DNA from: Bacillota bacterium
GTDB lineage: Bacteria; Bacillota; GCA-003054495; Carboxydocellales; JAJZSN01
Direction of reading: 5' to 3'
NCBI GenBank assembly: GCA_021849745.1
Contig: JAJZSN010000003.1
Span: forward strand, 891-64,890
DNA: 64,000 nt
Positions 1 through 52,024 of this stretch are shown here, one piece after another. Numbering within the stretch: the first letter of the stretch is position 1; every line of letters begins with the position of its first letter. Position numbers and translations under genes: made by a program. Under the pieces are notes generated by a model, which searched no databases, was not told where the DNA came from, and was given only the letters and a program-made list of their open reading frames with translations.

Positions 1-138
1 ACAGAGCCAATCGAGTACACTGATGATTTAGATCAGGAGGAATCGCTTCCTCAAGGTGAAAAGTATCAAAAATACCAGATGAAAGACTACAAACCCATTG
101 CACATGAATACCGTGCTGATGACGGAGAAACAAAGTAA
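1..138 (+). CDS. 3' end of an unidentified ORF entering from the window edge (ends ...EYRADDGETK*)
   Basis: Frame 1 is open from nt 1 to TAA at 136-138. No recognisable motif. Absent from the ORF track because it has no start codon in the window. Confidence 0.2.
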   Translation, partial: TEPIEYTDDLDQEESLPQGEKYQKYQMKDYKPIAHEYRADDGETK

Positions 139-4657: not shown

Positions 4658-5209
4658 ATGCATCCTGATGGCGAACGGATTCTTTTGTCTGAGGCGGATA
4701 TTAGCGCTAAGGTTAAAGAGATAGGTGAACAAATTTCAAGGGATTATGAAGGTAAAGAGTTATTGGTTATTGGCATTCTCAAGGGAGCCCTGATTTTTAT
4801 GGGTGACCTAGTGCGGCAGATAAACGTACCGGTGAGCCTGGATTTCATGGCTGTGTCCAGTTATGGGACTTCCACCGAATCTTCCGGTGCAGTACGGATT
4901 TTAAAAGATCTGGAGAAGAGCATTGAAGGGCAGCATGTTTTGATTGTGGAGGATATCATTGATACCGGGCTTACTCTGAAATACCTCTTGGAAAACCTCC
5001 AGGCCCGCAAGCCGGCCAGTGTCAAGGTCTGTACTTTGCTGGACAAGCCGGAAAGGCGCAAAACCCAGGTGGTGGCTGATTATAACGGTTTCAGCATTCC
5101 TGATGAGTTCGTAGTGGGTTACGGCCTGGACTACGCCGAGCGGTATCGGAATATTCCCTATATAATGGTGCTTAGGAGAGAAGTGTATGAGGTCAGGGGT
5201 GGCTTATAA
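4658..5209 (+). CDS. hpt: Hypoxanthine(-guanine) phosphoribosyltransferase
   Basis: PRPP loop LIVEDIIDTGLT and DFMAVSSYG. GGGGAGGA lies upstream of ATG 4658. The 45 extra N-terminal aa in the ORF track are not Hpt-like. Confidence 0.9.
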   Translation: MHPDGERILLSEADISAKVKEIGEQISRDYEGKELLVIGILKGALIFMGDLVRQINVPVSLDFMAVSSYGTSTESSGAVRILKDLEKSIEGQHVLIVEDIIDTGLTLKYLLENLQARKPASVKVCTLLDKPERRKTQVVADYNGFSIPDEFVVGYGLDYAERYRNIPYIMVLRREVYEVRGGL

Positions 5210-5254
5210 GCTTTACTATACCATCAGGGGTGGCTTAGAAGTCTTACTATACGG
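5193..5254. repeat. 31-bp tandem direct repeat, 2 copies, overlapping the hpt stop
   Basis: Copy 1 is TCAGGGGTGGCTTATAAGCTTTACTATACCA (5193-5223). Copy 2 is TCAGGGGTGGCTTAGAAGTCTTACTATACGG (5224-5254). A third start, TCAGGTG, follows at 5255. Confidence 0.85.
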
Positions 5255-5394
5255 TCAGGTGTTAGGGGTTAGGTTTTAGGGGTGAGGGTTGGGATTGTCT
5301 TGTATGTTGGGTTCGTAGTTCGTAGTTGTTAGTTGGTGATTCATAGTTTGTAGAATAAGCTGATAGCTGACAGCTGATAGCTGATAGCTGGCAA
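5255..5394. repeat. 140-nt tract of 20 heptamers in a single phase
   Basis: TTAGGGG-type units occupy 5255-5296 and GTTCGTA-type units 5311-5352. CTGATAG/CTGACAG units occupy 5360-5394. The distance 5255 to 5311 is exactly 8x7 nt. The tract runs into the guaA SD (GGGAGG). Confidence 0.9.
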
Positions 5395-5407
5395 GGGAGG
5401 AAGCAAT

Positions 5408-22926: not shown

Positions 22927-22955
22927 TTGACACCAAAAGAGCTTTTTGTTACTAT
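22927..22955 (+). promoter_or_regulatory. Sigma-A-type promoter for the riboswitch-permease transcript
   Basis: TTGACA (22927-22932), a 17-nt spacer ending in TGT, then TACTAT (22950-22955). Confidence 0.5.
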
Positions 22956-22975
22956 TTAAGTGAGGACAAGTAAAT

Positions 22976-23046
22976 ATCTCGTATAAGTTTGAGAATATGG
23001 CTCTTACGTTTCTACCGGGCAACCGTAAATTGCTCGACTACGGGGG
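22976..23046 (+). promoter_or_regulatory. Purine riboswitch aptamer, guanine/hypoxanthine class
   Basis: TATAA...AATATGG...GTTTCTACCGGGCAACCGTAAATTGCTCGACTACG matches the G-box core (L2 ATATGG, J2/3 GTTTCTACC, L3 CCGTAAAT). The specificity position in GACTAC is C. P1 pairs CTCGTA with TACGGG. Confidence 0.85.
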
Positions 23047-23218
23047 AAAACTGCTACGCCAAAGGAGAAAAACCCGGACGGATAGGATTCACTCGATTCT
23101 AAGGAGAGAAAAACCATCAGTTCGGGTATACTTTTTAGGAGGTGGTACATGGCTGGTCATTAGCCAGGTTAATTTTCCCTGTGGTTTTAAAAGACAGAAA
23201 GTGAGGAGGCTGAATTAC

Positions 23219-24587: not shown

Positions 24588-24763
24588 AGCTGTCAGCTGT
24601 CAGCTATCAGCTGTCAGCGGCGGGCTTGCATTTTGGGATTTTTCGGACTAGGGGCCGTTGGCCCCTGTCCAGTCTTATTATAACGTTGATAATTACCGCT
24701 TATAGCGGATTATATAGTTAATTTTTTAAGCTGACGGCTGACAGCTGATAGCTGACAGCTGAC
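24588..24763. repeat. Inverted heptamer-arm element: 27-bp perfect arms around a 118-nt loop
   Basis: The left arm (AGCTGTC)2-AGCTATC-AGCTGTC-AGC spans 24588-24618. The right arm AGCTGAC-GGCTGAC-AGCTGAT-(AGCTGAC)2 spans 24729-24763. Positions 24592-24618 are the exact reverse complement of 24737-24763. Confidence 0.95.
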
Positions 24764-26076: not shown

Positions 26077-26108
26077 AGCTGTCAGCTGTCAGCTATCAGC
26101 TGTCAGCT
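26077..26108. repeat. AGCTGTC/AGCTATC heptamer array directly after the purB stop
   Basis: AGCTGTC AGCTGTC AGCTATC AGCTGTC AGCT. The first 31 nt are identical to 24588-24618. Confidence 0.9.
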
Positions 26109-29508: not shown

Positions 29509-29526
29509 AGCTGTCAGCTGACAGCT
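29509..29526. repeat. Perfect 18-bp palindrome made of one AGCTGTC/GCTGACA pair
   Basis: AGCTGTCAGCTGACAGCT lies 5 nt after the purM stop and 8 nt before the purN SD. Confidence 0.9.
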
Positions 29527-29545
29527 CGACCGGAGGTAATACAGT

Positions 29546-30157
29546 ATGAGCCTAAATCTCGGTATTCTGGCTTCGGGCAGCGGGTCTAACTTGCAGGCTA
29601 TTGTAGATGCTTGCGAGAGGGGGGACGTGGTGGCCCGGGTTAAGGTGGTCATCAGTGACAAGGCCGGGGCCTATGCTCTGGAAAGGGCTAGGGCCAAGGG
29701 CATTGCGGCTGTACATATCAATCCCAAAGAGTTTAGCGGGAAAGAGTTCTTTGAAGCGGAGATTGTCAGGGTTTTACAGCTGCATGAGGTTGAACTGGTT
29801 TGTTTGGCGGGATATATGCGTTTGGTTGGGGACAAGTTATTGGGGGCCTTCCCACAGCGGGTGATGAATATTCACCCGGCTCTTTTGCCGGCTTTTCCGG
29901 GCCTACATGGACAGCAGCAGGCCTTTGATTACGGGGTTAGGTTTTCAGGTTGCACTGTTCATTTTGTTGACCATGGCATGGATACCGGACCTATAATTCT
30001 CCAGGCGGTGGTTCCTGTGCTGACCGATGATACGGCTGAGTCCCTGGCGGCCAGGATTTTGGAACAGGAGCATAAGATTTACCCCCAGGCCATACAGCTT
30101 TATGCTGAGGGCAGGCTGAGGGTTGTGGGGCGGAAAGTTATTGTAGCTGGTAGCTGA
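29546..30157 (+). CDS. purN: GAR formyltransferase
   Basis: NIHPALLPAFPG and the VHFVDHGMDTGPII motif. Confidence 0.95.
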   Translation: MSLNLGILASGSGSNLQAIVDACERGDVVARVKVVISDKAGAYALERARAKGIAAVHINPKEFSGKEFFEAEIVRVLQLHEVELVCLAGYMRLVGDKLLGAFPQRVMNIHPALLPAFPGLHGQQQAFDYGVRFSGCTVHFVDHGMDTGPIILQAVVPVLTDDTAESLAARILEQEHKIYPQAIQLYAEGRLRVVGRKVIVAGS

Positions 30158-30212
30158 TAGTTTGTAGCTTTTAGCTGGTTCATAGTTCGTAGTTTGTAGT
30201 TCTTAGTTGGAG
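30143..30212. repeat. Ten in-phase heptamers, from the GTAGCTG type to the GTTCGTA type, spanning the purN stop to the purH SD
   Basis: GTAGCTG GTAGCTG ATAGTTT GTAGCTT TTAGCTG GTTCATA GTTCGTA GTTTGTA GTTCTTA GTTGGAG. The last 5 purN codons and TGA (30155-30157) lie inside the array. Confidence 0.9.
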
Positions 30213-31773: not shown

Positions 31774-31891
31774 TTAGCTGGTAGTTGGTAGCTGATAGCT
31801 GGTAGCCTTGAAAGACAACTTAAGGGTTCGGATAATGACCAAAGAGTTATCATTCAGGCTACAAGCTACAAGCTACCAGCTACAAGCTCCA
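31774..31891. repeat. Imperfect inverted heptamer arms (AGCTGGT type versus AGCTACA type) around a 48-nt loop
   Basis: The left arm spans 31774-31808 and the right arm 31857-31891. My hand alignment gives about 28 of 33 positions pairable, including one G-U. Confidence 0.85.
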
Positions 31892-31906
31892 ACAGGAGGG
31901 AAATAC

Positions 31907-39250: not shown

Positions 39251-39291
39251 TAATGTAATCTAGTAAAATAATTCCAATGGGGGCGGTTGGG

Positions 39292-39918
39292 ATGCTGGAA
39301 CGCTGGATAGCTAATAAAGCCACGGTTATGGCTCAAGAATTGGGCTATGATGATGATAAGCGGGAAGTGTTGCAGTACTCCATGACTATTCTGTCCACAA
39401 CCATTCTGGGTTTCCTGGCAATAGGTCTTGTGGGAGCTTTGGTTGGTGTGGCTGGACTGGCTTTAACTGCCGGACTCTCGGCTGGGATTCTTCGAGCCTA
39501 TTCTGGTGGCGCCCATGCCACTTCACCGATACGATGTAATGTGGTTGGAGTAATTATTTTTATCGGCATTGGTTTGGTAGCCAAGTATCTAAATGGGTGG
39601 GTAGAACCACTATGGTTGGTTATTCCTATTGCCTTATTAGGTTTTGGTTCGATTTATCTTTATGCTCCGGCTGAGGCTCCGGGTAAACCCATTCAGTCCA
39701 TGCTTAAAAGGGCTACTTTTCGTAGGATTTCTTTTAGCTTAATGGGGTTTTGGACCGGTATAGCCGGTTTTTTGGCGGTGAATTCCATGGCCCTGGATGG
39801 CTTTCTTGTGGCTAGCGCACTGGGGATTTGTTGGCAGAGTATATCTTTAACTCCTGCGGGTCATGGTTTGATAGGATTCCTGGATAAAGGTTTACAGTTT
39901 GGTAATAAAATATCATAA
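39292..39918 (+). CDS. agrB: AgrB-family autoinducer-prepeptide processing membrane protease
   Basis: AYSGGAHATSPIRC has His and Cys 7 residues apart, as in S. aureus AgrB H77/C84. There are multiple TM helices. Confidence 0.85.
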   Translation: MLERWIANKATVMAQELGYDDDKREVLQYSMTILSTTILGFLAIGLVGALVGVAGLALTAGLSAGILRAYSGGAHATSPIRCNVVGVIIFIGIGLVAKYLNGWVEPLWLVIPIALLGFGSIYLYAPAEAPGKPIQSMLKRATFRRISFSLMGFWTGIAGFLAVNSMALDGFLVASALGICWQSISLTPAGHGLIGFLDKGLQFGNKIS

Positions 39919-39988
39919 CCCCGTCACCCACGGTTTACATACTATCCTTGTTTCTATTGCTAAGCGAGTATTAAAAGGGGGAATTCTT

Positions 39989-40111
39989 GTGTTAACAAAA
40001 ATTGCTAATCGTTTGATGGCCTCAGCCCTGTTCGCTTTTGCTTTGTTTGATATCGGTATTGCCAGCGGTGTTATAACCTACCAACCGGAGGTGCCCAAAA
40101 GTCTAAGATAG
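39989..40111 (+). CDS. agrD: AgrD-type autoinducing-peptide precursor (40 aa)
   Basis: Amphipathic leader, then ...IGIASGVITYQPEVPKSLR. This aligns with C. perfringens AgrD ...TSACLWFTHQPEEPKSLRDE. AAAGGGGG lies 7 nt before GTG 39989. The ORF-track version begins too early. Confidence 0.75.
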   Translation: MLTKIANRLMASALFAFALFDIGIASGVITYQPEVPKSLR

Positions 40112-40147
40112 TATATTAAATTGAAATGGTGACGGGGTTAATAAAAT

Positions 40148-40639
40148 TTGGAGGTTTTAGTGTTGGATTTTCGCACAATTTTATTAATTTATTTTCCGGT
40201 AATGAGTTTAGCTGCTTATTCAGGTTTAGCCCTTCTAGGCATAAGAATAAAACTTGTCCCTGCTGTTTTGGCGGGCATAACTGCAGGAACCATGGACTAT
40301 TTCGTTAGGATGACCTACGTACCTTTAGGAATTCCTCCTCTTTTGGATTTGCCACTTATGGTACTAATTTTAGCAATAGTTTTAAAGTTTTTTACTAAAG
40401 AAAGTTGGATGGCAGTAACAGGAGGTAGTATTTTAAGCTACATTCTTATTTCTGTCGGTGATTTAGTTATTTTCCCAATGACATTAAGCATTTTAGGTAT
40501 TACAATAGAACAACTGGTTAAAGATATTTGGCTTGCCCTGATGGCGGGTTACGCAAATTCTTTATTGCTTATTATATCTAGTTTATTATCATTTTTTTAC
40601 AAGTTCAAAATAATAGATTTATCTAGTATGAGAAAGTAA
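40148..40639 (+). CDS. Polytopic membrane protein (about 5 TM), candidate detached AgrC sensor module
   Basis: Entirely hydrophobic helices with no soluble domain. It lies between agrD and the AgrC-like kinase. GTG 40160 (GGAGG 5 nt upstream) is an alternative start. Confidence 0.7.
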   Translation: MEVLVLDFRTILLIYFPVMSLAAYSGLALLGIRIKLVPAVLAGITAGTMDYFVRMTYVPLGIPPLLDLPLMVLILAIVLKFFTKESWMAVTGGSILSYILISVGDLVIFPMTLSILGITIEQLVKDIWLALMAGYANSLLLIISSLLSFFYKFKIIDLSSMRK

Positions 40640-40665
40640 ACGTTTGTAAAATTAGGTGGTGGCTC

Positions 40666-41541
40666 ATGGGAAATATTGATAAGATAAATAAAAAAGCATT
40701 AATCCTGGTTAATGTTATATTAGGCCAGACTTTATTGGTGGTATTTATTGTTACTTATAATAGGTTATGGATTGCCGATGAAATGATGAGAAGGGCGCCG
40801 GATGTCCTTATTACCGCAGTGTTTACTGTTGCAACCGTTATTCTAACGGCATTAGGGGTCTGGTTAATAAGGACTATTATGGAGATGGCTGCTAAAGAAG
40901 TTCAGGCTGAAGCCAACGAAGCCCGGTTAGAAGAAAGCTTGGAATTCATCGAAGTCCTGCGTTCGCACCGTCATGACTACCTTAACCATCTGCAGGTTAT
41001 ATCGGGATTACTGGATTTAGGGATGAATGACAGAGCCAAACAATATATCTGGGAATTGGCTAAAGATATTAAAGAAGAAAAAGGACTCCAATTGGCTGAC
41101 CATGCGGAAATCAATGCCCTCTTGGTCAAAAAATGGGCTCTTGCCGAGGTTAATAAGGTGGCTGTGTCTTTGGAAGTCACTGCAGATTTAAGAAGTATGA
41201 CCATACCTTCCTATGATTTAACCAGAATTCTTGGCAACCTTATTGAAAACGCCATTCAGGCTACCACTCAAGTGGATGAAAGCCAGAGAAAAGTTGAAGT
41301 TGGAATCCATGAGGATCCTACAAAATGGATATTTATTGTATTTAATCAGTTACCCATTATTCCCCTTGAAATGCAACAGAGGGTTTTTGAGAGGGGTTTT
41401 TCCACTAAAGGAACTGAGGGTAGGGGTCTAGGTTTGGATATAGTTTGCAATTTGTTGGAGAAATATAATGGAACCATTGATTTGGTGAGTAAGGACGGTC
41501 TTGGCACCGTTTTCACGGCGAAAATACCTAAGAAGCAATGA
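40666..41541 (+). CDS. AgrC-like (HPK10) histidine kinase with only 2 TM helices
   Basis: H-box LRSHRHDYLNHLQ (compare AgrC FRHDYVN). N-box ILGNLIENAIQA. G-box FSTKGTEGRGLGLDIV. Confidence 0.85.
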   Translation: MGNIDKINKKALILVNVILGQTLLVVFIVTYNRLWIADEMMRRAPDVLITAVFTVATVILTALGVWLIRTIMEMAAKEVQAEANEARLEESLEFIEVLRSHRHDYLNHLQVISGLLDLGMNDRAKQYIWELAKDIKEEKGLQLADHAEINALLVKKWALAEVNKVAVSLEVTADLRSMTIPSYDLTRILGNLIENAIQATTQVDESQRKVEVGIHEDPTKWIFIVFNQLPIIPLEMQQRVFERGFSTKGTEGRGLGLDIVCNLLEKYNGTIDLVSKDGLGTVFTAKIPKKQ

Positions 41542-43616: not shown

Positions 43617-43617
43617 C

Positions 43618-44156
43618 ATGGCCGGCGGGGCGGTCCGGGAGTTGACCAGGTGCCCATGAAAGCCGATTTTGCCTGGGATGTGGAGGGTTTGCAGGCCGCT
43701 GCGGGGCGGGATGTGACCCGGGTGGTATTTCTCTGTTCCCCCAATAACCCCACAGGCGGGTGCCTTGACCGGGCTGCGTTGGAAGGGATTTTGGCGGCTG
43801 TGGCGGCCCTGGAAAACCGGGAGTATTTCAGGCCTCAGCTAGAGGCAATTATAGCGGGGCGTCAATGGTTGAGCGAAGAGTTAATCGGGATTGAGAGTGT
43901 GGAGGTTTTTCCTTCTAAAGCGAATTTCATTCTCTTCCGGGTGCCGGGCTGTGCCGGAGAAGTTTTCCGTAGGCTGGCAGAGGAGGGTGTTTTTATAAGG
44001 TATTTTAATGAGGCGCCGGGTTTGGAAAAATGTTTGCGAATTAGTGTCGGAAAAAAAGAGGATAATTCAGCTTTTGTAGAGAAAATTAGAAATATCTTAG
44101 GGCAGCTATCAGCTGTCAGCTATCAGCTAAAAAATAGGCGGGAAAGAAAGCGGTGA
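43618..44156 (+). pseudogene. hisC: Histidinol-phosphate aminotransferase remnant
   Basis: A 13-codon N-terminal stub (43618-43659) is in a different frame from the 168-aa ORF. That ORF joins ...VVFLCSPNNPTGG...LAAV directly to ...AALENREYF...PSKANFILFRV.... The DEAY and SK(PLP-Lys) segments are absent, as are about 140 N-terminal aa. Confidence 0.8.
44104..44128. repeat. AGCTATC/AGCTGTC heptamer array translated as the tail of the hisC remnant
   Basis: AGCTATC AGCTGTC AGCTATC AGCT encodes ...QLSAVSYQL.... Confidence 0.85.
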
Positions 44157-44163
44157 GAGCGAA

Positions 44164-45378: not shown

Positions 45379-46085
45379 TTCCGGCCATCGATTTACGGGG
45401 TGGGAAATGTGTGCGGTTGGTTGAAGGCAAGGTTGAGAATGAAACCATTTATTCCCATGAACCCGTGGAACAGGCTCTCAAATGGCAGGACAAGGGGGCC
45501 CGGATGCTGCACCTGGTGGATTTGGACGGGGCATTTGCCGGTCGGCCCAAGAACCTGGATGTAATTAAGGAGATTGTTCGGGCAGTGGATATCCCGGTTC
45601 AACTAGGCGGCGGAATACGAACCCTTGAGACTATCGAAATGCTCCTGGAGATGGGGATAAACCGGGTTATCCTGGGCAGTATCGCCATCTATAAGCCGGA
45701 TTTGGTAAAAGAGGCCTGCAGCCGGTATGCTGACCGGGTAGTGGTAGGCATTGACGCCAAGGACGGCCTGGTGGCCATCGAGGGTTGGGAATCAACTGTT
45801 GATAAAACTACTGTGGATCTGGCTCTAGAGATGAAAGAAGCCGGCGTTAAACGGATTATTTTTACCGACACCAGGCGGGACGGCACTTTAAAGGGTCCCA
45901 ACGTGGAGTCAACCAAAGAACTGGCCGAGAAAACCGGCCTTAAAGTAGTGGCCTCCGGCGGGGTATCCTCTCTGGACGACATCAAGGCTCTCAAGGAAAT
46001 CGAACCCCTAGGCGTAGACAGCGTCATCCTGGGCAAAGCCCTCTACACCGGAGCAGTGGATCTGGAGGAGGCGCTTAGGATTTAG
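45369..46085 (+). CDS. hisA: ProFAR isomerase
   Basis: LIPAIDLRGGKCVRL start and the later (beta/alpha)8 motif ...IASGGVSSLDDI.... There is a 10-nt overlap with hisH. Confidence 0.95.
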   Translation: MLLIPAIDLRGGKCVRLVEGKVENETIYSHEPVEQALKWQDKGARMLHLVDLDGAFAGRPKNLDVIKEIVRAVDIPVQLGGGIRTLETIEMLLEMGINRVILGSIAIYKPDLVKEACSRYADRVVVGIDAKDGLVAIEGWESTVDKTTVDLALEMKEAGVKRIIFTDTRRDGTLKGPNVESTKELAEKTGLKVVASGGVSSLDDIKALKEIEPLGVDSVILGKALYTGAVDLEEALRI

Positions 46086-46204
46086 CTGTCAGCTATCAGC
46101 TATCAGCTGTCAGCCGATGGGGTATGCTTATCCCGTCAAATAAACTCCAGACATGTATTATAGCTATAAGCTACTGGCTATTAGCTAGAAAGCCAGCTAT
46201 AAGG
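46084..46204. repeat. Two heptamer arrays after hisA: AGCTGTC type (46084-46114) and AGCTATA/AGCTACT type (46161-46204)
   Basis: The first array begins inside the hisA TAG stop codon. The second contains the hairpin CTGGCT...AGCCAG. Confidence 0.85.
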
Positions 46205-46515
46205 TTTTCTCTTGCATGCATAGGTTGGGGTGTTTTGTGGAGCAACTTTTCATAAACGTGCGAGAGACAGCCCGTCGGATGCCGAGACATTACCCTAAAA
46301 GGGCGTATAGGTGCAGTCACCTCTCATTGAAGACGGCGGGGAACAAACCGGGTAGCTCTCGTGAAGCCTGAAAAGTTGAGCTAGTGAGGCTTCGAAGAAC
46401 AAAGTGATGAGGTAGCCTCACTTGTGCCGCGATACTTAAGGTGCATACTTGTAGGCGAACAAAATACCCCAACCGCCCGTACCAAAACCCCAAAGTAAAC
46501 AAGGAGCGAAAGCTT

Positions 46516-47277
46516 ATGCTAACCAAACGCATTATCCCCTGCCTGGACGTCACCGGCGGCCGGGTGGTTAAAGGGACTAATTTTGTTAATTTAAGAGATG
46601 CCGGGGATCCGGTGGAACTGGCGGCGGTTTATGATGCCGCCGGGGCCGACGAACTGGTTTTTCTGGACATTACCGCTTCTTCCGACGGGCGGGCCACCAT
46701 GTTAGATGTGGTCCGACGTACTGCCGAGGAAGTGTTTATCCCCTTTACCGTGGGCGGGGGTATCCGGACCATTGAGGATATCCGCCAGATGCTGAAGGCG
46801 GGGGCGGATAAGGTTTCCCTTAATACTTCGGCTGTACAGAACCCGGAGGTAATCGGTCAAGGGGCGTCCAAGTTCGGTTCCCAGTGTATTGTGGTGGCCA
46901 TTGATGCCCGGTCAACCGGAACGCCCGGCAAGTGGGAGGTCTATATCCACGGAGGGCGGACTCCTACCGGTATAGACGTTCTGGAGTGGGCCAGGAAGGT
47001 AGAGGAACTGGGAGCAGGGGAAATCCTGCTGACCAGCATGGACAGGGACGGCACCAAGGACGGCTACGACCTACCCTTAACCAAAGCGGTAGCGGAAGCG
47101 GTGAACATCCCGGTTATTGCCTCCGGGGGTGTGGGCAACTTAGAGCATATTGCCCAGGGATTAACCGAAGGTAAGGCCGATGCTGCTTTGGCCGCTTCGA
47201 TTTTCCATTTTGGCGAATACACCATCCGGGAGACTAAGGATTACCTGGCATCCCGGAATGTGAAGGTCAGGATGTAA
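46516..47277 (+). CDS. hisF: Imidazole glycerol phosphate synthase, cyclase subunit
   Basis: [12 protein letters not shown] start. AAGGAG lies 9 nt before ATG 46516. The 25 upstream ORF-track codons are not HisF-like. Confidence 0.97.
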
Positions 47278-47296
47278 GGTTGGGTAATATTTGCGG

Positions 47297-47379
47297 TCAG
47301 GGGTTAGGTTTTAGGGGTAAGGGTGGGGTATTCTTGGATGAAGGGTTCATAGTTCGTAGTTTATAGTTCGTAGATTAGG
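47297..47379. repeat. TTAGGGG-type then GTTCGTA-type heptamer tract; paralogue of 5255-5352
   Basis: CGGTCAGGGGTTAGGTTTTAGGGGTAAGGGTGGGGTATTCTTGGATGAAGGGTTCATAGTTCGTAGTTTATAGTTCGTAG aligns with 5252-5345 apart from one heptamer indel and scattered substitutions. Confidence 0.85.
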
Positions 47380-47584
47380 GAATTCACGAAAGACTTACCC
47401 GACTAATGGTTGGCATGCATAGCAGAACCGACCTTTTTGCACTGCACACCAGCACAAGGAAGGCTAAGGCTTGCTATCACCAGCCTAAGCCTTCCTAGCC
47501 CGAAGTGAGCTTAGTAGCACTGTGCCCGGAGCATGGGAGTGCGTTCAATTATCAACACCCCGCCCCAGTCAAAGATTCGTACAA

Positions 47585-47619
47585 AGCTAACGACTGACGA
47601 CTAACAGAATAAGAATACG
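47585..47619. repeat. AGCTAAC/GACTGAC heptamers running into the hisI SD
   Basis: AGCTAAC GACTGAC GACTAAC AGAATAA GAATACG, followed by AGGGAGA and ATG 47631. Confidence 0.7.
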
Positions 47620-47630
47620 AGGGAGACAAG

Positions 47631-48257
47631 ATGGAATTTCTAAATACCTTAAAATTTAACGCCCATGGGCTGATTCCGGCTATCGTTCAGGATTATGCCA
47701 ATAACGAAGTTCTGATGATGGCTTATATGAATCGGGAGGCTGTGGAAAAGACGCTGGAGACGGGGAAAACCTGGTTTTGGAGCCGAAGCAGGCAGAAGTT
47801 GTGGAATAAAGGGGAGACTTCCGGTCATTGGCAATTGGTTAAGTCCATGGCCTATGATTGTGATGCCGATGCACTGCTAATTAAGGTGGAGCAGTTGGGG
47901 GTTGCTTGTCATACCGGCAACCGGACGTGTTTTCACAATCATATTGAAACTGTCCAGGGTGAGAAAACCGTTCCTGTAGACAGCACTATACTTGATACTG
48001 TTTATCAGGTTATTTTAAGCCGGAAAGCAGAACGGCCGGAAGGTAGTTATACCACTTATCTTTTTGATAAGGGCATTGATAAGATTCTTAAAAAAGTAGG
48101 CGAAGAAGCTGCCGAGGTAATTATTGCTTCCAAGGGTGCTAATAGGGATGAGGTTGTTTATGAAGCTGCCGATTTATTTTTCCATACTTTAGTTATGTTG
48201 GGCTTCCACGATATTACCCCGGAGGAAGTATACAGGGAATTGGCTAAACGCAGGTAA
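47631..48257 (+). CDS. hisI: Bifunctional phosphoribosyl-AMP cyclohydrolase / phosphoribosyl-ATP pyrophosphatase
   Basis: The HisI part reads ...[17 protein letters not shown]...CHTG. The HisE part reads ...YTTYLF...[10 protein letters not shown].... Confidence 0.95.
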
Positions 48258-48378: not shown

Positions 48379-49476
48379 ATGGATTTCTTTGGATCCGGTA
48401 AAGAGTTAATCTTTCTTAACGAGGTCATACGGGAACTAAGCTCAAGCTATCATTTTGATGATAATATTAATGCTCTTTTAATTAATGCGGCTACGGCTAC
48501 CATCAGTGAAGCCGGTTGTCTACTTACTGTAAATAATAACTATAAAAAGGGACGAATCACCGTTTTTGAAGTCTCGGCAACTTATGGAGGGATTAATCAT
48601 CGATGTCTGGACTTCTTAGCAAAAGAGAGTTTCTTTATTCAAAGTTTTCTTGAGAATCCTGTGAGTAGAATAGTGGACGGTGTTGAAAAACACTTTCTGC
48701 CTCTTAAATTAATGGATCCCTTATTACGTTCTATGTTAGTTGTTCCTATTGTTTTGGACAAGCGAGTTTTGGGCCTATTGATTTTGCTTCACCGACATCA
48801 AGGAAGGGAAGAACATTTACCCCAGTTTACGGAAAGGGATAGCCAATTGATGGGTATTTTGGCCCATCAGGCAGCCCTAATGATAGAGAACAACTATTTG
48901 AAGATGGAAAACCAGCGCCGCAGTTTATATCTCAAAACCATCACTGCTTTAAGTCAAGCTATAGAAGCCAAGGACATTTACACCAGAGGTCATTCGGAGC
49001 GAGTAGCAGCCCTGGCCACAGGGTTGGGTGCAGAGTTAAAATTATCTCCGGACGAAATAGCCAACATAAATTATGGGGCTTTGCTCCATGATGTAGGTAA
49101 AATTGGTATCAGTGAAGCTATTCTTAATAAAGAGGGTCGTTTGGATCCGGAAGAATACGAAATTATGAAAAAGCACCCTGAAATTGGCGCCAATATTTTG
49201 AGTGAAGTGGATTTTCTTGAGGATGCCCTGGATGTGGTGACACACCATCATGAGCGTATTGACGGGTCAGGCTACCCAAAGGCTCTGGTTCAAAAGGAGA
49301 TTCCCTTGGCGGCCAGGATTGTGGGGATTGCCGATGCTTGGGATGCTATGACTTCAGACCGGGCTTACCGGCAGGCTATGCCGGAAAATATGGCAGTAAA
49401 TCAGCTGCGCAGAGGGGCGGGTACTCAGTTTGATGCCTACCTTGTGGAAAGATTTCTTTGGATGGTACTTAGCTAG
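48379..49476 (+). CDS. GAF-domain / HD-GYP-domain protein (c-di-GMP phosphodiesterase type)
   Basis: HSERVA...LHDVGK...HHERIDGSGYP. GGAGG lies 7 nt before ATG 48379. Confidence 0.9.
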   Translation: MDFFGSGKELIFLNEVIRELSSSYHFDDNINALLINAATATISEAGCLLTVNNNYKKGRITVFEVSATYGGINHRCLDFLAKESFFIQSFLENPVSRIVDGVEKHFLPLKLMDPLLRSMLVVPIVLDKRVLGLLILLHRHQGREEHLPQFTERDSQLMGILAHQAALMIENNYLKMENQRRSLYLKTITALSQAIEAKDIYTRGHSERVAALATGLGAELKLSPDEIANINYGALLHDVGKIGISEAILNKEGRLDPEEYEIMKKHPEIGANILSEVDFLEDALDVVTHHHERIDGSGYPKALVQKEIPLAARIVGIADAWDAMTSDRAYRQAMPENMAVNQLRRGAGTQFDAYLVERFLWMVLS

Positions 49477-49478
49477 AA

Positions 49479-49630
49479 GTTAGAGGTTGGAGGTTCGAGG
49501 TTAGAAGGGTTTGGCTGGCAATGATTATTCTTTGAGATAGAATATATATAACTACGATATGCAATTCAGATGTACCCCTTGGGGGTTTTTTTATTAATCT
49601 AACCCCAAACTTCCAACCTCTAACCTCTAA
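49479..49630. repeat. Inverted heptamer arms of GTTNGAG type around a loop that contains a terminator-like hairpin
   Basis: The left arm GTTAGAG GTTGGAG GTTCGAG GTTAGAA GGGTTTG spans 49479-49513. The right arm CTAACCC CAAACTT CCAACCT CTAACCT CTAA spans 49599-49630. Positions 49479-49495 pair with 49608-49624 (17 bp, one G-U). Confidence 0.9.
49574..49592 (+). terminator. Short GC hairpin plus T7 inside the loop of the 49479-49630 element
   Basis: ACCCC-TTG-GGGGT followed by TTTTTTT. The stem is only 5 bp. Confidence 0.4.
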
Positions 49631-51831: not shown

Positions 51832-51832
51832 C

Positions 51833-52024
51833 AGCTGTCAGCTATCAGCTATCAGCTGTCAGCAGGCGGGCTGAACTTTTTGGTCGTTTTGCGGAGGGAT
51901 TATTTCTGGAACTACAAAGTGAGTATACGGAATTTTATTCTAAATTTAACGTAATCTTTTAAAATTTTTAAGCTAACAGCTGACAGCTGACAGCTGATAG
52001 CTAAAAAAACAGCTGATAGCTACT
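51833..52024. repeat. Inverted heptamer-arm element, sibling of 24588-24763
   Basis: The left arm AGCTGTC AGCTATC AGCTATC AGCTGTC AGC spans 51833-51863. The right arm AGCTAAC (AGCTGAC)2 AGCTGAT AGCT...AGCTGAT AGCTACT spans 51971-52024. Positions 51847-51863 are the exact complement of 51986-52002 (17 bp). Confidence 0.9.

Follow-up and report, generated by a model that had tools for sequence, protein, structure and literature searches.

The heptamer tract between hpt and guaA in a Bacillota genome: a mosaic of three intergenic heptanucleotide repeat arrays

INTRODUCTION

Is a run of twenty heptamers between two genes one element that holds its phase, or several repeats laid end to end? The question is raised by positions 5255 to 5394, between hpt and guaA, of a 64,000-nt stretch of a Bacillota genome (GenBank assembly GCA_021849745.1, contig JAJZSN010000003.1, positions 891 to 64,890; here, the window). 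A preliminary description, made from the sequence, read the tract as keeping a single 7-nt phase while its unit changed, and took the kept phase to indicate a constraint on periodicity itself. Here, we report that the feature is real, yet other than first inferred: three members of the heptanucleotide simple sequence repeat (SSR) class make up a mosaic. Very probably, the three are abutting, independently phased arrays drawn from a dispersed intergenic SSR population.

Work on tandem heptamer repeats in bacteria goes back to 1990, and that they exceed repeats of other unit lengths has been recognized since 2007. The class to which the tract belongs was first described in cyanobacteria, as the short tandemly repeated repetitive (STRR) sequences; it was later recognized across many bacteria in the form of over-represented heptameric long SSRs. 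The heptanucleotide STRR sequences of heterocystous cyanobacteria were reportedly presented by Mazel et al. in 1990 (cited in PMC4692102). Heptameric SSRs are over-represented in many bacteria, polymerase slippage has been proposed to generate them, and there is said to be "no detailed literature" on their function (PMC4692102). We found no literature on the unit strings described below or on such repeats in Thermincola and its relatives.

RESULTS

The tract and its parts. The hpt-guaA spacer is 198 nt long, and most of it is taken up by heptamers; both genes were identified by Pfam domains on orthologues. Read in sevens from 5255, the sequence matches the twenty units of the preliminary description letter for letter, and its placement between the hpt stop codon (5207-5209) and the guaA ATG (5408) is likewise correct. 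The 7-nt period also held up: lag-7 identity across the tract was 0.61, far above the 0.30 +/- 0.04 (maximum, 0.43) of 2,000 shuffles, with harmonics at lags 14 (0.52) and 21 (0.46), and no further lag stood out in the autocorrelation over the 140 nt. Tandem Repeats Finder returned three separate arrays of 5.1, 6.1, and 4.7 copies (5253-5288, 5311-5353, and 5358-5390), and the per-base lag-7 identity fell to zero at both junctions between them. We designate the three C, B, and A' (Table 1). Sub-array C consists of five to six units (GGTCAGG, TGTTAGG, GGTTAGG, TTTTAGG, GGTGAGG, and GTTGGG; TAGGGGT or TAGGTTT when anchored on TAG). The middle units of B are degenerate (GTTGTTA, GTTGGTG, and ATTCATA), and A', whose unit is the reverse complement of the CTRTCAG arrays sited after stop codons elsewhere in the window, abuts the guaA ribosome-binding site GGGAGG (5395-5400). 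Upstream, a 31-nt tandem duplication begins in the last codons of hpt and contains its stop codon, and a partial third copy of the duplicated sequence enters the first heptamer array.

The phase. Heptamers counted from a single origin look in register in any sequence, so a claim of register needs a landmark that the units share. The sole feature common to the three units (TAGGGGT/TAGGTTT, TAGTTCG, and TAGCTGA) is YAG, and the YAG anchors of the three sub-arrays lie at phases 6, 3, and 2 modulo 7. Unit similarity in the frame originally chosen (2.1, 1.3, and 1.5 of 7) was not above that in other rotations, and the best rotations between sub-arrays were 4, 3, and 6. Moreover, other copies of these arrays do not conserve a phase, the outcome that the preliminary description had itself named as refuting its reading. 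The offset from the first array to the second is 3 in the copy after hisF versus 4 in the tract, at 30143-30208 the step from a TAGCTGG array to a TAGTTCG array is 11 nt, and in a related genome (GCA_054636335.1, locus L129) no linker separates the G-rich array from the GTTCRTA array. We conclude that the single phase is a framing artefact: the anchors occupy three different phases, periodicity is lost at the junctions, and the offset at which the same arrays are joined differs in paralogous and orthologous copies. Thus, the proposed constraint on periodicity itself is unsupported.

Copies elsewhere in the window. The paralogue that the preliminary description placed after hisF is there: 5261-5341 aligns with 47296-47376 at 69 of 79 columns (87% over 81 nt, with three gaps of 1 to 2 nt), and the hpt-guaA copy carries one extra 5' unit. 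A second array, proximal to the ribosome-binding site of hisI, is set apart from the B array of that copy by a window-specific insert of about 200 nt, and AGAATAAG, from the B/A' junction, recurs there at 47606-47613, upstream of hisI. The insert (47380-47575) holds a 17-bp hairpin at 47457-47496, is unique within the window, and is absent from the corresponding loci of two relatives (L129 and L131); the z score for RNA folding of the hisF-hisI spacer was -1.3. The third, short copy matches the 3' end of hpt (5185-5200) exactly over 16 nt (10586-10601), and GGTCAGGGG is found at the hpt end, where the hisF-hisI array begins, and in the fragment at 10586. Its presence at three sites points to recombination seeded by microhomology and array homology. 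Because the C-plus-B composite is found at hisF-hisI both in the window and in L129, the composite is ancestral at that site, and the G-rich part of the hpt-guaA copy is new in the lineage of the window. The 31-nt duplication may be a by-product of the recombination that brought the G-rich part into the hpt-guaA spacer.

Table 1. Coordinates of the hpt-guaA repeats and of related arrays in the window
Feature	Coordinates	Strand	Support and remarks
31-nt tandem duplication TCAGGGGTGGCTTAKAAGYYTTACTATACSR, 2.2 copies	5193-5259	+	Tandem Repeats Finder, score 99
Sub-array C, G/T-rich heptamers	5253-5292	+	Tandem Repeats Finder, sequence, TAG anchoring
Non-periodic linker ATTGTCTTGTATGTTGGG between C and B	5293-5310	+	Zero lag-7 identity; aligns with homologous linker 47324-47344
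Sub-array B, GTTCGTA family (TAG-anchored, TAGTTCG), 6 units	5311-5352	+	Tandem Repeats Finder, sequence
Junction GAATAAG between B and A'	5353-5359	+	Sequence; kept in GCA_054636335.1 (L001)
Sub-array A', CTGAYAG (= YAGCTGA), 5 units	5360-5394	+	Tandem Repeats Finder, sequence
Third short copy TATGAGGTCAGGGGTTAGGGGTA, in divergent spacer	10582-10605	+	Sequence match
Inverted pair (AGCTGTC)x4 / 118-nt loop / (AGCTGAC)x5, permease stop to purB ribosome-binding site	24588-24763	+	Stem 27/27 Watson-Crick
Unpaired CTRTCAG array directly past purB stop	26077-26108	+	Tandem Repeats Finder; orthologous array in GCA_054636335.1 (L125)
TAGCTGG-type array and abutting TAGTTCG-type array, last codons of purN to purH ribosome-binding site	30143-30208	+	Tandem Repeats Finder
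Inverted pair (TAGCTGG)x4 / (GCTACAA, CCAGCTA)x4, purH-purD	31775-31892	+	Stem of 33 positions, 28 Watson-Crick
CAGCTRT array at end of hisC remnant, before hisB	44103-44129	+	Tandem Repeats Finder; unit and number the same in L129
CTRTCAG array over hisA stop, then degenerate AGCTA-type array (46161-46187)	46084-46187	+	Tandem Repeats Finder
Paralogue after hisF: C array 47295-47323, linker 47324-47344, B array 47345-47377	47295-47377	+	Alignment, Tandem Repeats Finder
CTAACGA CTGACGA CTAACAG array before hisI, proximal to ribosome-binding site	47588-47610	+	Reverse complement of TAGTCGT-type units
Inverted pair (TAGAGGT)x4.5 / (CCTCTAA)x4.5 around intrinsic-terminator-like hairpin (49574-49586) and T run	49474-49630	+	
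Inverted pair (CAGCTRT)x4.5 / (AGCTGAY)x4.5, pcrA to DHH-family gene	51832-52022	+	23/24 Watson-Crick; absent from L129

A population of period-7 arrays. We counted 18 period-7 arrays in the window, whereas 20 shuffles yielded none; under the same criteria each of the periods 4 to 6 and 8 to 12 gave at most one. All are intergenic or overlap just the last codons of a gene; none lies within a real coding region. They are 4 to 6.6 units long, occupy 9 of the 28 co-directional spacers of at least 40 nt, chiefly within the pur and his operons or near pcrA, and sit at spacer edges, either directly past a stop codon or directly before the next ribosome-binding site. On the gene-sense strand the unit families are CTRTCAG; CTGAYAG; GTTCRTA; GGTTAGG/TAGAGGT with CCTCTAA; TAGCTGG with CCAGCTA/GCTACAA; and ACGACTR. 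CTRTCAG amounts to the PvuII palindrome CAGCTG with one base added, CTGAYAG is its complement, and several units are linked by mutation (TAGCTGA, TAGCTGG, TAGTTGG, and TAGTTCG). YAG is weakly enriched in the other arrays (52%, versus 38% of random heptamers). A telomere-like reading of TTAGGGG was rejected, as the arrays are internal and intergenic. We note that the 42-nt purM-purN spacer contains a minimal palindromic seed, AGCTGTCAGCTGACAGCT (29510-29530), that neither relative has; it may represent a CTRTCAG/CTGAYAG pair that is nascent or has collapsed.

Relatives. Look-ups of the exact GuaA and PurH proteins of the window gave no match; five sets of related sequences were gathered by homologue searches together with cluster members. 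GuaA of the window is 96% identical to that of the Thermincolia bacterium metagenome-assembled genome GCA_054636335.1, 76% to that of Carboxydocella, and 73% to that of Thermincola; judged from sequence, the host is a Thermincolia-class Bacillota. The sets comprise GCA_027321445.1 (L128 and L132; 99.985% and 99.66% identical to the window), GCA_054636335.1 (L001, L125, and L129; about 82 to 89% nucleotide identity in genes), a Joint Genome Institute (JGI) metagenome contig (JGI 3300002900 bin, L127 and L131; about 80%), GCA_027420795.1 (L003; GuaA, 84%), and GCA_016841045.1 (L253; HisIE, 68%). Over 30.4 kb compared between the window and GCA_027321445.1, a span with about 14 arrays but without the hpt-guaA spacer, we counted 41 substitutions and no indel; thus, the arrays are not hypermutable. 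The hpt-guaA spacer of L001 is 125 nt and holds five clean GTTCRTA units, the same GAATAAG junction, and 3.5 CTGAYAG units; it has neither the G-rich array C nor the 31-nt duplication. That of L003 is 69 nt and holds no arrays.

Elsewhere, orthologous arrays differ by one or two units between species. Unit and number are conserved across lineages in some (3.5 units of CAGCTRT before hisB; the CTRTCAG array after purB), and six spacers carry arrays in all three lineages with their units replaced. Between purH and purD, TAGCTGG/GCTACAA in the window stands opposite GTTCRTA/AACTRYG in GCA_054636335.1 and GKTTAGG/AACCTAR in the JGI contig. The spacer between the HD-domain gene and pcrA has TAGAGGT/CCTCTAA around an intrinsic terminator in the window, a 2.5-unit remnant plus terminator in GCA_054636335.1, and GGTTAGG/CCTAACC around a terminator of its own in the JGI contig (L131). 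Between the permease gene and purB, the CTRTCAG pair of the window is matched in GCA_054636335.1 by TAGTCGT arrays and a GTTCRTA/AACTAYG hairpin, and the orthologous GGGGCCGTWGGCCCC hairpin in the loop is kept in both, although the arms differ. Presence itself also varies: the DHH-amj spacer is 12 nt in the window versus 92 nt with a pair in L129, and the pair in the pcrA-DHH spacer of the window has no counterpart in L129. Arms are non-complementary or single in hisD-hisB of L129 and pcrA-DHH of L131. In the more distant L253, the his operon is compact and free of arrays and its hisC is intact; two heptamer arrays lie elsewhere in L253. In GCA_054636335.1 (L125, 9794-9859) a (TAGTTCA)x7 array reaches about 24 nt into the 3' end of purN; three of its units are translated as a C-terminal tail, and an in-frame TAG of the array ends the protein.

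Inverted pairs and folding. Five spacers of the window hold a reverse-complement pair, and about half of the arrays belong to such pairs. In each, the 5' array begins 0 to 5 nt past the stop codon and the 3' array ends just upstream of the next ribosome-binding site. The stems are ungapped, span 24 to 33 positions at 85 to 100% Watson-Crick pairing, and enclose loops of 47 to 118 nt; in the near-perfect stems, variant units are matched across the arms. RNA folding of the spacer between the permease gene and purB gave a minimum free energy (MFE) of -98.1 kcal/mol (z, -8.0). The flagged tract folds no better than its shuffles (MFE, -49.4 versus -49.8 kcal/mol; z, +0.13), and the idea of one long structured RNA was rejected on that value. 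No plus-strand arrays of the TACGAAC or CCTAACC type lie near hpt or guaA; with no complementary partner nearby, the tract is a mosaic of unpaired arms, two of the kind usual on the stop-codon side and one of the kind usual on the ribosome-binding-site side. No terminator-like site was predicted in the hpt-guaA spacer. Rfam gave a single match over the window, a purine riboswitch elsewhere, and none in 46050-47650 even at E<=1. In a search of sequencing runs, none contained a useful share of the window (at most 0.07 of its words), and no RNA run was found.

Mismatches within stems bear on whether the pairing is selected in RNA, where G.U pairs are tolerated and A.C pairs are not. Across 12 stems of the three Thermincolia lineages, the sense strand has 14 G.U versus 5 A.C mismatches (one-sided binomial, about 0.03), an asymmetry confounded by strand-biased deamination, that is, by a C-to-T bias of the coding strand. 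Such a difference hints at RNA-level constraint in this clade, local at best. Among the matches listed, 25 co-directional inverted pairs from other phyla had 26 G.U versus 40 A.C, which argues against general selection on sense RNA. All eight non-palindromic pairs have the G/T-rich arm at the 5' end, an orientation that carries little weight because the arrangement is the same on both strands and only three unit families are involved.

Arrays in other phyla. The exact pattern of 3.5 CAGCTRT units was found in at least 120 stretches of species-representative genomes, from Acidobacteriota, Cyanobacteriota (Moorena, Trichodesmium, and Microcoleus), Bacteroidota, Planctomycetota, Chloroflexota, Gemmatimonadota, Vibrio, Patescibacteria, and others, and most of the listed 8-kb loci hold further heptamer arrays with other units. 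The TAGTTCR pattern was found in at least 120 metagenome contigs, and viral contigs of IMG/VR held 40 CAGCTRT and 17 TAGTTCR stretches. Among the matches listed, metagenomic TAGTTCR arrays were sense to flanking long open reading frames (ORFs) in 19 cases, antisense in 18, divergent in 15, and convergent in 13, so there is no bias toward the transcript sense. A reverse-complement partner within 400 nt was present for 16 to 21% of all arrays, and 240 foreign loci contained 72 inverted pairs. Arrays in Moorena reach up to 59 units.

Other features of the window. A purine riboswitch aptamer (22959-23060, plus strand; Rfam RF00167, 79.8 bits), with a promoter-like site upstream (22927-22955), heads the xanthine/uracil permease gene, which is followed by purB-C-F-M-N-H-D. 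The HisS-like gene and hisG are separated by an agr-like cassette at 39277-41541 (AgrB, a small ORF, and a SpoB_a/HATPase_c_5 sensor kinase) that is kept in all relatives. Between hisD and hisB, hisC is a decayed remnant (43617-44163) in which an ORF at 43650-44156 weakly matches Aminotran_1_2; the remnants are shorter in L129 (6628-6910) and L131 (6766-7045), and the gene is intact (355 aa) in L253 (6191-7258). Over roughly its last 100 nt, the remnant of the window is unusually well conserved in L129. The 430-nt hisA-hisF spacer has turned over except for a block of about 85 nt (GGGCGTATAGGTGCAGTCACCTCTC...AAGCCTGAAAAGTTG, about 46300-46385) that is about 85% conserved with L129 (8900-9000) and lies inside a 16-bp inverted repeat (46223-46238/46459-46474); the block may be an undescribed structured RNA. 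Finally, a divergent spacer between a LysR-type gene and purL carries period-9 inverted arrays (14822-14908; 2.8 copies of CACGGAGAA facing two copies of TTCTCCGTG) that could be an operator or a hairpin.

DISCUSSION

What generates arrays that are so alike in period and so changeable in unit? The preliminary description offered two candidate causes, of which one fits the data. Replication slippage with unit conversion agrees with an enrichment confined to period 7, with units connected to one another, with differences of one or two units between species, and with composites copied between loci. The other candidate, a ligand with a 7-nt period, fits poorly. We lean slightly toward a near-neutral account at the level of DNA. 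Slipped-strand mispairing would create and resize arrays; ectopic recombination, seeded by array homology and microhomology, would move arrays and their flanks among spacers; and hairpin-templated copying would create complementary arms or keep existing arms matched. Such a mechanism seems the most economical, and selected RNA stems seem its main rival. The tract itself is most likely a passive inter-cistronic spacer and the 5' leader of guaA, with any effect on expression incidental.

Several observations weigh against a near-neutral origin. The arrays are confined to 4 to 6.6 units, and simple slippage would spread lengths more widely. About 14 of them passed without an indel while a near-identical assembly accumulated 41 substitutions in 30.4 kb, and some (hisD-hisB; CTRTCAG after purB) keep both unit and copy number at about 85% coding identity. 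Six spacers have retained arrays in all three lineages despite replacement of the units. Moreover, the best stems are nearly perfect (27/27 and 23/24), with variant units matched between arms, and G.U mismatches outnumber A.C mismatches (14 versus 5) in the three Thermincolia lineages.

A functional RNA hairpin is an explanation that we regard as possible but unlikely. Complementary arrays would pair in the polycistronic mRNA and loop out the spacer, placing a stem of 24 to 33 bp between a stop codon and the next ribosome-binding site. The stem might be cut by RNase III, as are the intercistronic sites of phage T7, and so separate or insulate the cistrons, or it might act like a repetitive extragenic palindromic (REP) sequence to shield the upstream 3' end and stall terminating ribosomes; unpaired arms, as in the flagged tract, would be decayed or nascent halves. 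The strong stems and fold, the placement of 5' arms 0 to 5 nt past stop codons and of 3' arms just before GGAGG-type sites, the excess of G.U over A.C, and the narrow array length all speak for it. So does the recurrence of the same layout, with different units, in orthologous spacers of three lineages (purH-purD; HD-pcrA around a terminator), and a heptamer SSR of Haemophilus hmw1A that works through an RNase III-targeted 5' untranslated region (UTR) provides a precedent (PMC12721329). The flagged tract, however, has neither a partner array nor a significant fold and is left unexplained by stems. Several spacers have non-complementary or single arms, the G.U excess does not extend to other phyla (among the matches listed), and hairpin-templated mutation could match arms without selection. 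A stricter form, in which selection maintains the pairs as a bracket indifferent to sequence, with complementary arms the sole requirement and units freely swapped, and in which the stem marks the junction for RNase III-type processing or insulation, we consider unlikely. If it were true, unit turnover with kept pairing would be covariation of whole arrays around a loop that often contains a terminator or promoter, and the long-unexplained heptamer repeats of bacteria would gain a function.

Four further explanations are each less likely. A protein that docks one subunit on each unit of single-stranded RNA or DNA, with arrays as binding platforms, is improbable. Candidates would be a HutP-like hexamer, HutP being said to recognize sites of the format UAG-N4-UAG-N4-UAG (reportedly Kumarevel et al. 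2005), or cold-shock proteins, each of which covers some 7 nt. On the sense strand, YAG followed by four variable bases recurs at exact 7-nt spacing in all three sub-arrays and in most 5' arms, and a fixed TAG with variable N4 would account for unit turnover; according to a review, CspB binds heptamer repeats with one protein per unit (PMC4679880). However, the 3' arms read CTA rather than TAG, CAGCTGT arms lack UAG altogether, orthologous positions hold unrelated units, the YAG enrichment is weak, TAGTTCR arrays are balanced between sense and antisense in the metagenomic matches listed, and the hpt-guaA spacer has no predicted terminator or antiterminator. A miniature mobile element, either like a miniature inverted-repeat transposable element (MITE) or mobilized like REP by a transposase, would have heptamer arrays as terminal inverted repeats and insert between stop codons and ribosome-binding sites. 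Inverted arms do flank inserts of 47 to 118 nt, presence differs between relatives (DHH-amj and pcrA-DHH), an 81-nt composite has been copied between loci, arrays occur in viral contigs, and GTAG, the conserved head of REP, occurs within GTTCGTA and TAGCTGG-type units. Yet loops of same-family pairs lack homology, the GGGGCCGTWGGCCCC hairpin between the permease gene and purB is orthologous across lineages though its arms differ, single arms are common, and no transposase adjoins any array, so that such an element is very improbable. Equally doubtful is a G-quadruplex formed by the C sub-array, in the guaA leader or in DNA, that tunes expression as was proposed for GGGAATC/GGGGAYT repeats. Both copies have four G runs (5265-5292 and 47299-47327), and quadruplex formation is known for the G-rich heptamer repeats of Xanthomonas and Nostoc (PMC4692102), but the runs are spaced GGGG-N10-GGGG-N3-GGG-N2-GGG, with a first loop of 10 nt, and the explanation covers just one of three sub-arrays. 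Moreover, the closest relative lacks C in its orthologous spacer, and thus C is not needed for guaA. Finally, that array copy number upstream of guaA changes often and switches expression, as at a phase-variable contingency locus, is hardly credible. A tandem SSR does lie directly 5' of a ribosome-binding site, and heptamer SSRs control Haemophilus hmw1A (PMC8262952, PMC12721329), but the arrays have just 4 to 6 units, the flanking genes are housekeeping biosynthetic genes, and the two assemblies that differ by 41 substitutions show no indel in about 14 arrays, the hpt-guaA spacer not being among those compared.

How do the arrays compare with known systems? They have the properties of heptanucleotide SSRs: at least three to four tandem copies, dispersed intergenic arrays, an excess at period 7, and several units. 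Like cyanobacterial STRR sequences, they consist of tandem 7-nt units in many dispersed intergenic arrays of several unit families. Unlike them, they occur in a Thermincolia-class Bacillota, are short (4 to 6 units), and often form inverted pairs at spacer edges. The units of STRR1 to STRR3 are CCCCAGT, TTGGTCA, and CAACAGT; none is among the arrays here and the host is not cyanobacterial, so the arrays are not STRR in the strict sense. In enterobacteria and pseudomonads, the REP unit spans about 35 nt, forms an imperfect palindrome headed by GTAG, and is tied to REP-associated tyrosine transposases (RAYT). REP sequences and the bacterial interspersed mosaic elements (BIME) built on them resemble our arrays in being intergenic within operons, a few bases from stop codons, in many dispersed copies that form inverted mRNA hairpins. 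In the window, however, hairpins arise only from two tandem arrays 47 to 118 nt apart; the single arrays B and C are not palindromic, and while the placement near stop codons in inverted pairs is REP-like, a palindromic unit of about 20 to 40 nt with a GTAG-type head is missing. No RAYT was seen within the 64-kb window, in which no systematic scan was made. The internal sequence that MITE copies share was not found either, loops being unique within the window and unrelated among same-family pairs of L131, and no target-site duplications were noticed on reading the spacers of the window and its relatives, a reading rather than a systematic search. HutP-type spacing is present, with TAG or CAG every 7 nt in all three sub-arrays; the overlap with a terminator and the sense specificity of such sites are not, given the hpt-guaA spacer and the orientation of TAGTTCR elsewhere.

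Further parallels come from surveys and single-unit studies. As summarized in PMC4692102, Mrazek et al. 2007 described heptameric long SSRs with the same period-7-specific intergenic excess and proposed slippage; in that summary the work is a statistical survey, without lineage comparisons, spacer-edge placement, or unit turnover. Xanthomonas heptamer SSRs mostly have four units and occupy the same intergenic sites in related species with varying sequence and length, sometimes as inverted pairs (PMC4692102). The GGGAATC/GGGGAYT repeats of Xanthomonas and Nostoc are likewise intergenic, mostly of about four units, and in part inverted on opposite strands, but they are a single G-rich family studied as quadruplex formers (PMC4692102), whereas the window has at least five families, most not G-rich. 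TAACTGA repeats lie near start codons in Beggiatoaceae, cyanobacteria, and Bacteroidetes, with S1, Csp, or CsrA proposed as binders and a post-transcriptional role suspected; they share with the window 2 to 6 units close to start codons and the same unit in distant phyla, but they have one dominant unit, nearly always in direct repeats (1 inverted set in 170), that replaces the ribosome-binding site, whereas GGAGG sites follow the arrays here (PMC4679880). In Nostoc, deletion of heptamer repeats changed reporter regulation by a mechanism left open (10.1101/2022.06.06.494920). The 7-bp SSR of Haemophilus influenzae hmw1A/hmw2A is also a heptanucleotide SSR in a 5' region, acting through 5'-UTR structure and RNase III, but it is hypervariable and serves an adhesin (PMC8262952, PMC12721329), whereas the arrays of the window are stable between near-identical strains and flanked by housekeeping genes.

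Why the hpt-guaA tract looked like one element carries a lesson of its own: register between different repeat units is meaningless without a common landmark. As far as the searchable literature shows, such repeats appear to be undescribed in this lineage and phylum. The window and three related uncultured genomes form a compact comparative system, in which the spacers of the pur and his operons hold arrays in every lineage, some conserved, some with units replaced, and many as complementary pairs between a stop codon and a ribosome-binding site. Such a system makes neutral slippage with hairpin-templated copying on the one hand, and selected RNA stems on the other, directly testable alternatives.

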